From positions 1,184,001 to 1,248,000 of the forward strand of contig CM000434.1 in NCBI GenBank assembly GCA_000165345.1: a stretch of DNA of 64,000 nucleotides, read 5' to 3'. The position numbers were made by a program, and so were the translations under genes. The notes beneath the pieces are model-generated. The model did no database searches. It saw nothing but the letters and a program-made list of their open reading frames with translations, and was not told where the DNA came from. This document shows, one piece after another, positions 27,301 to 30,323 of this stretch. Positions within the stretch are counted from its first letter, which is position 1. Every line of letters begins with the position of its first letter.

Positions 27301-30300
27301 TTTGGGATTAAAAACAATTAATAAATAATTAAAGATTCCTTGAATAGGTGTATTAAAGATTTTGTTATTTTTTAATAAATATTTGAATATTTTATCATAA
27401 TCTTGAAATTGTTGAAATATATTAAAAATATGAGTGTTAAGTGGTACCTGAAAAGAGTTTAACAATAAGTAAACTTTTAATACAAATTTGAAATTCTCAG
27501 AAAACTTATTTAAGAGTTTATTCAATAGTATTATAAAGTTTTGTAATATTAATGATTTATGATTTAATTGATCTTGAATATCTTTTGTTTTGAAATGAAA
27601 ATATTGACTTAAAATGATAATATCTTGAAATGAAATTTCTTGAATTTTTAAAGAATTGATTATATAAGTTTCAAAATATGAATATTTTTCAAGTTGAGAA
27701 ATAAAAGTACTTTGATATGATTTTCTTGGTAACAAAGAAAATTTGGATTCTAAAACAAAATGAAAATAAAGTAAAACCAAATAGAAATTAGGATGAGATT
27801 GTTCTTTCAAAAAATCTTCCAATTTTCTGACTTTATTATACTCTTGTAATATATATTTATATTGATTAAAAAATTTGGATTTGATTAGAATTTCTCTATT
27901 TTTATCAAAAAACTTAGAAATTAAAGAAATTTCTTCAATAAAAGAATCAATATTAACTTGAAAGATATCAATTTTCTTTAAAAATCTTTGATACTTTTCT
28001 TTAAAAGTTGAATGATCATTATTAAAAGATTCAATAATTTTATTAGAAGTAGAATGATTTTCAAAGTTTTTTAATGTATGATAACAATTATGAACAGTAT
28101 TTTCCCATTTCTGAAATTGGTAAATTTTTTCTATTAAAGATCTTATTTTCTTGGAAGTAAGTTTTCTAGTAAAAATTTGTGGTTTAAAAGAATAATTGAA
28201 AGATTTCGATACCCAATAATGTTGAATATGATTATTTTCAAGATTTGAATAATAATAATTATGATTTTGTATATTATTAGAATCATCTTTATTGAAAGAA
28301 TGGTCATTAATTTCAATAGAAAAAATAAAATCAATAAAAGATTTATTATTTTGAATAATATTAACTTGATTGAAAAATTCTTGAAAATTATGATCAAGTT
28401 CTTCATTTTTGGAAATTTCAAGATCTCGTCTCGGATGATTAAATTTTAATTCTTTAATAATTTTTTCAAGGAAATTTTCTAAATAATTGGAATATGATAT
28501 AATTTTATTATATTTAGTTTTATTAATAGGAGAATTTCCAGGAATTTCATTTTCTATTTTAAATTTAATAAATTTAAGTTTGTCAATATCTATTACTTTA
28601 GATTTTAAGGTTTTATTAAGTTCAAGATCAAGTCTTTGAACATTATTAAAAATAGCTGAAATAAGTAGATATAGATTTGAAGAATAATATAATGTATTGA
28701 AAAGGTCATTATCTTTATTTTTGATTGGTAGATCTTGAAATATTTCTTTTAATTTATAAATATCTAGACAACTTTTATTTTTATAAGTCTTATTGATTAA
28801 TATATTATAATAATCCATATGTTTAATTTCCCATTCATGTATAGTTTGATAATGTAAAAGTAGTTTAATATCGGAAATGTAATATAATATATTATTAGAG
28901 ATTTCAATTTTGGATGTAGTATTAGTATTAGTATTAGTATTACTTTTTTTTTGAGTAATATCAGAAATTTGATTACATATAGAAACAAGATTTTCAATAT
29001 ATTTAATATCAACAGGAATAAATGTTGAAAGTTGAATCCATTTGGATATACTGGATTGATCAGTGACAGTGAATTGAAATGAATGATTTTTTTGAGATGG
29101 TTGACCAGCCAAAGACAAAAAAGCTGTAGTTCTAAGAGTCCATATATCACAAGATACAATAATTGAAAGCAAAGTAAATCCAATAAAGTTTTTTTTAGAG
29201 GATAAAAATTCGGGTAAAGTAAATAAATTACCATGATTTGACTCAAGTATTGCTTTAATATAATTATCCAAATTCCGACTATTTTCGAGTGTTTTAACTT
29301 CATCCCTTAAAGACTTAATAATGGATTTTCTAAACCTGAAAAGAAAGAATATGAATAAGAATAGTTTAAAAGAAGGAATGAGTTTAAAACAAGAATGATA
29401 TATATGTGTATATATATATATATATATATATATATACATTGATTGATTGTAATGTTAAGAAATTCAAGTATAATTGAATGATTGTAAAACAGCCGACTGG
29501 TTACTTAATTATCAGATATTAGAATTAAATAACTAATGAACTGCTTATTAGTTTGTCACTTTGATATGAATCCACTTTAATTAGCAATGTAAAGAAGATT
29601 AATAATATAATCTCAGTGACAAATTACATGAATTAAAACTCAAATATAGTGTTAAACTTACTTTTGACCTTGTTCTAATGATATTTGAGACTGAATCTTA
29701 AAATGTTTATGACAATATATTTCAAATAAATGGTTTTTCTCTATTTTAATATTTCTACGTTTATAATGGGGAGATTTTAATAAACAATGAATATGAAAAT
29801 ATTCCATACATTGAGAAAAACGACATTTTCTAAGAATACCAAAATTACCATTACAAAAACAACATGATTTATTATTAATATAAATAAGAGGTTTAAGTAT
29901 TTCAATATTTGACATAGTCCTCCAATTATGTATAGTAATATAATCTTGAGAATAAATAGCACATTCAATATGAATCCAAATAGCTCTATTTTGAAGATGA
30001 TTAAATTTAGATTCAGAAGTCTGAAATAAATCAAATTTTTGTGGTATTAGTACTCTTTTTAAGATTCCAGTGTTAAAACATATGAGACATTTCAAGTCTT
30101 TATTTGAACTTAATTTATTTAGTTGTTTTCCTTTAATTTGAAGTTCATATTGACATGGGTCACATAAAATTACAATTCCTTGACTGGAAGCATTGTGATT
30201 AGAAATTCCATAACATATTTTGTGAAAGAAGACATCACAATTTTTGCATTTGACCAAAGTCAATTCGTTGTATGCGTATTCTTCAACATCATTGCAAATA

Positions 30301-30323
30301 ATGCATTCTCTATCATTTAACAT
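21304..30323 (-). CDS. Giant low-complexity nuclear-type protein (about 2900 aa) with N-terminal PHD-zinc knuckle-extended PHD (PZP) module; exons 29662-30323 (PZP) and 21304-29335; intron 29336-29661
   Basis: Exon 1 holds a PHD finger (CIICND...CKNCDVFFHKICYG...CDPC), a zinc knuckle (LKCLICFNTG) and an ePHD (AIWIHIECAIYSQDY...CCFCNG...CRFSQCMEYFHIHC). Its last codon AAG overlaps GTAAGT. A pyrimidine-rich acceptor TTTCTTTTCAG lies at 29336 in compatible phase (AA|G), and the 2675-codon ORF is open downstream. The apparent N-terminus MYIYIYIY of the naive ORF is the translation of a (TA)n microsatellite inside the intron. The body is N/K/I-rich with GR/E, SD and DDGNN repeats. Confidence 0.6.
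22440..22620. repeat. Codon-level imperfect repeats encoding a Gly/Arg/Glu-rich (RGG-like) block
   Basis: The + strand reads tcctcctc/ctttctcc repeats. Translated on the minus strand they give ERGGGERGGGERERRAGAGKEGIGGRGAGKE. Confidence 0.6.
24384..24425. repeat. (TCTGAA)7 hexanucleotide repeat encoding (SD)n
   Basis: Direct reading (gagtctgaatctgaatctgaatctgaatctgaatctgaat). In frame it gives SDSDSDSDSDSDSE within the giant ORF. Confidence 0.85.
24925..24975. repeat. Imperfect 15-bp tandem repeats (ccatcatcattatta)n encoding DDGNN repeats
   Basis: Direct reading. Translated as DDDDGNNDDGNNDDGNDND in the giant ORF. Confidence 0.7.
29409..29436. repeat. (TA)14 microsatellite inside the proposed intron
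   Basis: Direct reading. Confidence 0.85.

Follow-up and report, generated by a model that had tools for sequence, protein, structure and literature searches.

Where does the 221-residue zinc-finger protein encoded by cgd6_5120 of Cryptosporidium parvum end: at the stop codon of its open reading frame (ORF), or beyond an intron, in the giant ORF that follows it? The locus lies on the minus strand of a 64,000-nucleotide (nt) stretch of C. parvum chromosome 6 (assembly GCA_000165345.1, contig CM000434.1, positions 1,184,001 to 1,248,000 of the forward strand), hereafter the window, in whose numbering all positions are given. The ORF of 221 amino acids (aa), cgd6_5120, is recorded as “PHD Zn finger-containing protein” (CAD98329.1, EAK90177.1, KAL5368394.1, WKS78630.1), and the giant ORF is cgd6_5110 (PMC4637869 supplement). 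An earlier note, made from the sequence alone, had read both as one gene split in two and had suggested a comparison with orthologues in related genomes. This comparison was run, and the coordinates and sequence features listed in the note were all present in the window. From our analysis, cgd6_5120 and cgd6_5110 very probably form a single two-exon gene on the minus strand, whose intron carries an H/ACA small nucleolar RNA (snoRNA).

Results

The exon 1 ORF (30323..29658, minus strand, 221 aa) ends in CAA AAG TAA, and the G of AAG is the first base of the donor GTAAGTTTA (29661..29653). The stop of the 221-aa ORF is thus no more than the TAA within a GTAAGT donor, an overlap pointed out in the earlier note and found likewise in 11 lineages. 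Exon 1 is 662 nt long (30323..29662) and ends in phase 2. At the other side, the acceptor ATTCTTTCTTTTCAG reaches its 3′ limit at 29336, and exon 2 starts at 29335 with a G that restores the AAG (Lys) codon, the frame then reading FRKSIIKSL and onward up to a stop at 21304. The intron removed in this way (29661..29336) has 326 nt, a guanine-plus-cytosine (GC) content of 22% and stop codons in all three frames, while the spliced coding sequence of 8,694 nt is open throughout and translates into 2,897 aa. The features of a GT-AG intron were found together, i.e., the donor GTAAGTTTA, the acceptor TTTCTTTTCAG, phase 2 and an open frame over the junction. Counted on both strands of the 64 kb, the donor string itself has three occurrences, against 0.79 expected. 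Translated accordingly, exon 1 would give a module of the PHD-zinc knuckle-extended PHD (PZP) type and exon 2 (29335-21304) a body of 2,676 residues. A ciliate code or stop read-through was rejected, as every frame of the intron is closed by stops and the window holds many long standard-code ORFs.

The same gene is found in the CpBGF annotation (GCA_035232765.1, CP141123.1), as a single minus-strand gene that matches window positions 21304..30323 exactly (9,020 nt, 2,897 residues) and differs from the window isolate at 4 nucleotides. Owing to these differences, exact look-ups with the spliced 2,897-aa protein, the 2,711-aa ORF and the 2,504-aa form starting at Met394 matched no record in the collection searched. 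Excision of the 326-nt intron from the CpBGF DNA yielded 2,897 aa with the junction LEQGQK/FRKSIIKSL. Since CpBGF was built with Iso-Seq, RNA sequencing (RNA-seq) and manual curation, and its fused or split genes are backed by long-read transcripts (PMC12179316), the junction receives indirect transcript support through this curated fused model. The acceptor at 29336, the matching phases and the regenerated Lys, as noted earlier, are confirmed by this junction and by the open spliced frame.

Orthologues annotated as one protein spanning the whole query (2,753-3,360 aa) were found in six lineages, i.e., C. meleagridis, chipmunk genotype I, C. ubiquitum, C. canis, C. felis and C. ryanae, and in all six the sole intron falls at the same codon and in the same phase as in C. 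parvum. The exon/intron structure, the phase and the junction QGQK/FRKSIIKSL of C. parvum are shared by C. meleagridis (POM83077.1/KAK9172346.1); C. ubiquitum (cubi_02641) has the same structure and phase, but the AG of its model lies 6 nt further downstream. Four more lineages with split or absent annotation were included (C. hominis, C. serpentis, GCA_037039495.1 and a Logan assembly). The intron position and phase are kept in 11 Cryptosporidium lineages; in each of them the apparent stop falls on the TAA within GTAAGT, with a phase-2 intron and an in-frame exon 2. Across these lineages, intron lengths range from 210 to 444 nt with every residue modulo 3 represented, and stops and indels are confined to the intron in the lineages compared. 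Codons 222-393, at the start of the body, display ratios of nonsynonymous to synonymous substitution rates (dN/dS) of 0.16-0.23 against C. meleagridis, chipmunk genotype I and C. ubiquitum, which argues that they are translated. Besides, residues 222-393 include many invariant positions in a seven-species alignment. Yet in four lineages (C. felis, C. meleagridis, C. ubiquitum and chipmunk genotype I) the body has no in-frame ATG until 128-406 codons downstream. The single CpBGF gene and the six orthologue models bear out the proposal of one split gene; judged from these comparisons, the splice, its phase 2 and the 2,897-aa product are the correct model.

The ATG from which the giant ORF seems to start (29439..29437, minus strand) translates as MYIYIYIYIYTHIYHS and adjoins a (TA)14 tract that was also called by TRF. 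Apart from the window, a single isolate has this ATG in frame, GCA_031892065.1, where the giant protein is annotated with 2,711 aa from the MYIYIY ATG (L009 653-8788). In GCA_048859185.1, a (TA)16 tract shifts the ATG out of frame, and the annotated body is a 2,498-aa protein that starts at Met394 (L010 669-8165). The (TA)n region of C. hominis and of C. meleagridis has no ATG. The earlier suspicion that the MYIYIY N-terminus is an artefact of an intronic (TA)14 is upheld by this polymorphic frame and by the missing ATG in C. hominis; as far as these genomes tell, the start codon of the giant ORF is an accident of the microsatellite.

With its 326 nt, the intron is over three times as long as the species mean, C. 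parvum introns averaging 84-99 nt (PMC4637869). This length would be due to the H/ACA snoRNA that sits in it. In the intron alignment, a block stands out that is far better conserved than the exons; even C. ryanae, with a protein about 30% identical, shows no change in it. In all species examined, the sense strand of the block folds into a pair of hairpins joined by an A-rich hinge, and an ACA box follows near the 3′ end; a clean ANANNA is missing from C. felis. The 3′ hairpin is composed of a lower stem AAGCAG/CUGUUU, an internal loop UUCAUUA/CAGUCGG and an upper stem, with the ACA 14 nt past the loop top. Read from the folded sequence, this geometry is that of a canonical pseudouridylation pocket.

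A covariance model trained on seven species was then tried on four held-out lineages. Each held-out intron gave one full-length match in sense orientation (4/4; 101.6, 50.7, 45.8 and 44.8 bits, E values from 1e-6 to 2e-18), and a scan of the window with the model revealed no second snoRNA copy. In the alignment of 11 sequences, double compensatory changes affect 17 of 33 pairs, compared with 5.5 ± 1.7 in shuffles, and the share of cells that pair is 94.6%, against 32-49% with the partners slid. An alignment made independently of the model gave 9 covarying pairs versus 3.1. The pocket letters are invariant while the stems vary, which is the signature of a guide sequence. Rfam at gathering thresholds returned no match over the whole window. 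Four H/ACA snoRNAs were described in C. parvum by Li et al. (2022), and the 29480-29620 locus is possibly among them; according to the same study, intronic noncoding RNAs may preserve introns (PMC9465071).

Below threshold, the best Rfam match of the intronic RNA is the H/ACA family SNORA19 (RF00413), end to end. Human SNORA19 is an intron-encoded, two-hairpin H/ACA snoRNA, and the same layout and sense orientation are found in C. parvum. The 3′ pockets are nearly alike (UUCAUUAG...CCAGUCGG in C. parvum, UUAAUUAG...CCAGUCU in the SNORA19 Rfam consensus) and the spacing of 14 nt between pocket and ACA is shared, whereas the 5′ hairpin is unrelated in sequence. By analogy, the C. parvum RNA may work like the 3′ hairpin of SNORA19, while by score it is not a member of the family. 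The pocket is complementary over 7 + 4 base pairs to 5′-CCGACUG-UU-UAAU-3′, a motif of the eukaryotic consensus of the large-subunit (LSU) ribosomal RNA (rRNA). The predicted target motif has the short form CCGACUGUUUAAU and, in full, the LSU rRNA motif CCGACUGUUUAAUUAAAAC. A 29-mer with the target motif was found in at least 120 metagenomic contigs, and the three contigs tested (3/3) were eukaryotic LSU rRNA. The intronic RNA probably guides a modification of rRNA.

Splicing would both join the reading frame and free the intron for snoRNA trimming, a release that we infer from the biogenesis of intronic snoRNAs in other eukaryotes. The invariant 3′ pocket would then direct the pseudouridylation of the U that follows CCGACUG in CCGACUGUUUAAUUAAAAC, and the SNORA19 pocket appears to direct the like modification in human. 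The targets reported for human SNORA19 are 28S-U3709 and 18S-U863 (PMC8759569). Expression and processing of the snoRNA, as well as its rRNA target in C. parvum, are predicted by comparison with these systems.

Exon 1 presents the ligand order of a C4HC3 PHD finger, a Cx2C...Hx2C knuckle and a C5HC2H extended PHD (ePHD), every ligand being invariant in eight to nine species. Pfam recognized zf-HC5HC2H (48.6 bits, cut-off 29.1) and zf-HC5HC2H_2 (40.7, cut-off 27), while PHD finger 1 stayed under the gathering cut-offs (PHD 22.1 versus 24; PHD_2 23.1 versus 28). The best PDB sequence matches of exon 1 are the PZP modules of JADE1, PHF14, JADE3 and AF10. Its AlphaFold 2 model is poor, with a predicted local distance difference test (pLDDT) score of 52; the top 16 PDB hits of Foldseek with this model are all PZP modules, at TM-scores of only 0.31-0.47. 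The PHD-zinc knuckle-ePHD reading of the earlier note finds its support in these invariant zinc ligands, in Pfam and in top PDB matches that are PZP only, and a PZP-type module in exon 1 is therefore supported at the level of sequence, the quality of the 3-D model being too low to bear out the fold. The order of domains is that of JADE1/3, BRPF1, AF10, PHF14 and yeast Nto1 (NuA3). Identity to known PZP modules is about 17-23%, the knuckle of exon 1 has a 35-residue insert, and the bromodomain, PWWP, EPC-like and OM-LZ partners of known PZP proteins are absent from the Cryptosporidium protein. Binding of the unmodified histone H3 tail or of DNA by the C. parvum module is predicted only.

The body encoded by exon 2 had been described as low-complexity. 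This description falls short, as invariant columns number in the hundreds along its full length in the seven-species alignment. Pfam and PDB sequence searches found no domain in the body or in its C-terminal domain, and HMMER with the body against 1.84 billion representatives returned three Cryptosporidium proteins only; as judged by these searches, the sequence of the body is found in this genus alone. The coding microsatellite-like repeats of exon 2 (22456-22616, 24383-24425, 24922-24989 and 28917-28942) encode a Gly/Arg/Glu-rich tract plus DS, GNNDD and NT repeats, and that at 22456-22616 coincides with a strong GC skew (-0.57) at 22-24 kb.

The C-terminal conserved domain gave a structural model of moderate quality (pLDDT 58, 57-83 in the core), and the top four Foldseek matches of this model were SPOC domains. 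With moderate confidence, the domain is predicted to fold as a SPOC/Ku-type barrel. The comparison set of such barrels comprised PHF3, DIDO1, SPOCD1, SHARP, RBM15, FPA, MED25 ACID, Sld7 and Ku70/80. At the sequence level, neither Pfam SPOC nor solved SPOC chains matched the C-terminal domain even at E ≤ 10, and the SPOC fold is hence a lead and not a membership; any function of the domain is extrapolated from the model. PHF3, DIDO1 and SPOCD1 also combine a PHD finger with SPOC. However, the Cryptosporidium reader is a PZP module instead of a single PHD finger, no TFIIS-M was found in the C. parvum protein, and about 2,400 genus-specific residues separate its PZP module from the SPOC-like domain. 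To our knowledge, the pairing of PZP with a SPOC-type barrel has not been described.

Coordinates and surroundings of the locus

The positions of the features are collected in Table 1.

Table 1. Features of the cgd6_5120/cgd6_5110 locus in window coordinates
Feature	Position	Strand	Description or basis
Exon 1	29662..30323	-	Residues 1-220 and 2 bases of Lys221; initial Met-Leu conserved in all aligned lineages
PHD finger 1, residues 7-57	30153..30305	-	C4HC3; C7, C10, C26, C29, H34, C37, C54 and C57 invariant
Zinc knuckle	29961..30089	-	C79, C82 ... H118, C121 invariant; alignment; unusually long 35-residue spacer
Extended PHD, residues 118-207	29703..29972	-	Pfam zf-HC5HC2H
5′ donor GTAAGTTTA	29653..29661	-	Its TAA is the apparent stop of the 221-aa ORF
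Phase-2 GT-AG intron, 326 nt	29336..29661	-	Sequence, orthologues, CpBGF model
Alternative acceptor, AG 29613-29612, then A-TTA-TAT-TAT-TAA	29599..29613	-	50-nt intron, stop 29601-29599
H/ACA box snoRNA (predicted), 141 nt	29480..29620	-	Intron-hosted, sense orientation
snoRNA 5′ hairpin	29620-29555	-	Folding, covariance model
H box AAACUA	29554-29549	-	Hinge sequence
snoRNA 3′ hairpin	29546-29487	-	Folding, covariance model
3′ guide pocket, 5′ strand UUCAUUA	29534..29540	-	Invariant in 11 lineages
3′ guide pocket, 3′ strand CAGUCGG	29493..29499	-	Invariant in 11 lineages; pocket top 14 nt before ACA
ACA box	29485-29483	-	Invariant
(TA)14 (29409-29436) and ATG (29437-29439)	29409..29439	-	Spurious MYIYIY... 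start of the 2,711-codon ORF
Polypyrimidine tract and 3′ acceptor TTTCTTTTCAG	29336..29346	-	Sequence, orthologue introns
Exon 2	21304..29335	-	Third base of Lys221, residues 222-2897, stop codon
Core of the C-terminal conserved domain, residues ~2614-2777	21667..22158	-	Predicted SPOC/Ku-type beta-barrel

The gene pair is flanked by genes for GPI mannosyltransferase 2 (19161-20483, plus strand) and Trm5 (30652-32046, plus strand). An MPP6-family gene of 116 aa (approximately 20739-21168, plus strand) converges with the giant gene about 135 nt from its stop; its span of 430 nt for 116 codons implies an intron. Elsewhere in the window, a start codon directly precedes what looks like a short intron at 9560-9630 on the minus strand (ATG followed by GTAAGTTTA...TTGTAG and then G), upstream of a TTG-start ORF at 8680-9525. 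By its sequence, the arrangement probably represents one more split first exon, and there is a second GTAAGTTTT...TTTAG pair at about 9715-9750. The third GTAAGTTTA of the window (63342-63350, minus strand) is within apparently coding sequence. Finally, the region 44001-52000 is extremely AT-rich: its GC content is 9.6% at 44-46 kb and then 15-19% as far as 52 kb. Long ORFs are found there, together with a (TA)39 tract (49508-49583).

Discussion

Several observations weigh against a single gene with a guide RNA in its intron. Two genes are kept in the C. parvum records GCA_031892065.1, GCA_048859185.1, CAD98329 and EAK90177, in the annotations of C. hominis, C. tyzzeri and C. serpentis, and in the RNA-seq-informed re-annotation of Isaza et al. 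(PMC4637869 supplement). A full-text literature search by gene identifier (cgd6_5110, cgd6_5120, CPATCC) gave no paper; the genes are listed in this supplement alone. In four lineages (C. canis, C. ryanae, C. serpentis and one more), the start of exon 2 has an ATG at a distance of 1-11 codons, which makes independent translation of the body conceivable in those species. Concerning the snoRNA, the pocket strands of the 5′ hairpin vary between species with no target assignable, and the SNORA19 match scores 22.4 bits (E = 0.12), far under the gathering threshold of 80. Both AlphaFold models are of low to moderate confidence (pLDDT 52 and 58), and the gene model proposed here is built from sequence comparison and annotation. 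At last, the C-terminus of one protein record can be derived only if the donor at 29661..29653 is spliced to the AG at 29612, with a stop inside the long intron.

This record, UniProt F0X6G4 (“Cgd6_5120 protein”, 224 aa), leads to an alternative in which the 3′ splice site is chosen between two outcomes: the long intron would yield the 2,897-aa protein and the snoRNA, and a 50-nt intron (29661-29612) a 224-aa protein limited to the PZP module and ending in QGQKLYY, exactly the C-terminus of F0X6G4. Because the acceptor of the short intron lies within the 5′ stem of the snoRNA, no snoRNA would come from that transcript. The F0X entries of C. parvum presumably derive from the HNJ-1 full-length cDNA project. 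Mention of this project is made in PMC4637869. The alternative AG is found only in the group of C. parvum, C. hominis, C. meleagridis and the chipmunk genotype; C. ubiquitum (CACTATG) and C. canis (CACTTGG) have lost it, and no pyrimidine tract precedes it. Such a choice of acceptor is thus considered unlikely, although the 224-aa product is possible as a minor isoform or as an aberrant splice product.

A second alternative takes the conserved intronic block for a cis-element of some other type, for instance a regulator of splicing or an internal promoter, which folds by chance. It would fit with the empty Rfam search at gathering thresholds and with in-silico folds in which the “pocket” may be closed through G-U pairs. 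Yet the hairpin-hinge-hairpin-ACA layout is canonical down to the distance of 14 nt between pocket and ACA, the stems covary around invariant pocket letters, the held-out species gave strong matches on the sense strand only, and the pocket is common to SNORA19 and complementary to LSU rRNA. A cis-element of this kind is therefore highly improbable. As for two independent genes, i.e., a 221-aa PZP mRNA ending in the spacer, a giant gene read from its own ATG and an intergenic snoRNA, the idea draws on the split public annotations and on the ATG adjoining exon 2 in some species, and is next to untenable given a “stop” that is always a donor-consensus TAA, a phase compatible in 11 lineages despite the variation in intron length, residues 222-393 under purifying selection with no upstream ATG in four species, a frame-polymorphic (TA)n ATG in C. 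parvum and the fusion of both parts in the Iso-Seq-curated CpBGF.

The single two-exon gene with its intronic snoRNA thus stays the preferred model. Its merged structure is already known from CpBGF and six orthologue annotations, and as the correct model pre-exists, it brings no conceptual change; only the snoRNA and the SPOC-like domain are parts that may be new. For users of the split public records, in which a 221-aa “PHD protein” stands apart from a giant “uncharacterized protein”, the consequences are nevertheless concrete, as domains, knock-out designs, expression values and orthology would be mis-assigned. A snoRNA with a predictable LSU rRNA target would explain the unusually long intron. 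Besides, the predicted SPOC/Ku-type barrel offers the first structural handle on the orphan body, and hints that chromatin reading may be linked to the transcription machinery.

A wider scheme can be drawn, in which a PZP reader is joined to a SPOC-type barrel, the intron is kept genus-wide as the sole source of a SNORA19-like guide, and the short isoform is exclusive with it. Taken as a whole, this scheme is speculative and distinctly unlikely. If true, the output of a chromatin factor would be coupled to ribosome modification in Cryptosporidium.

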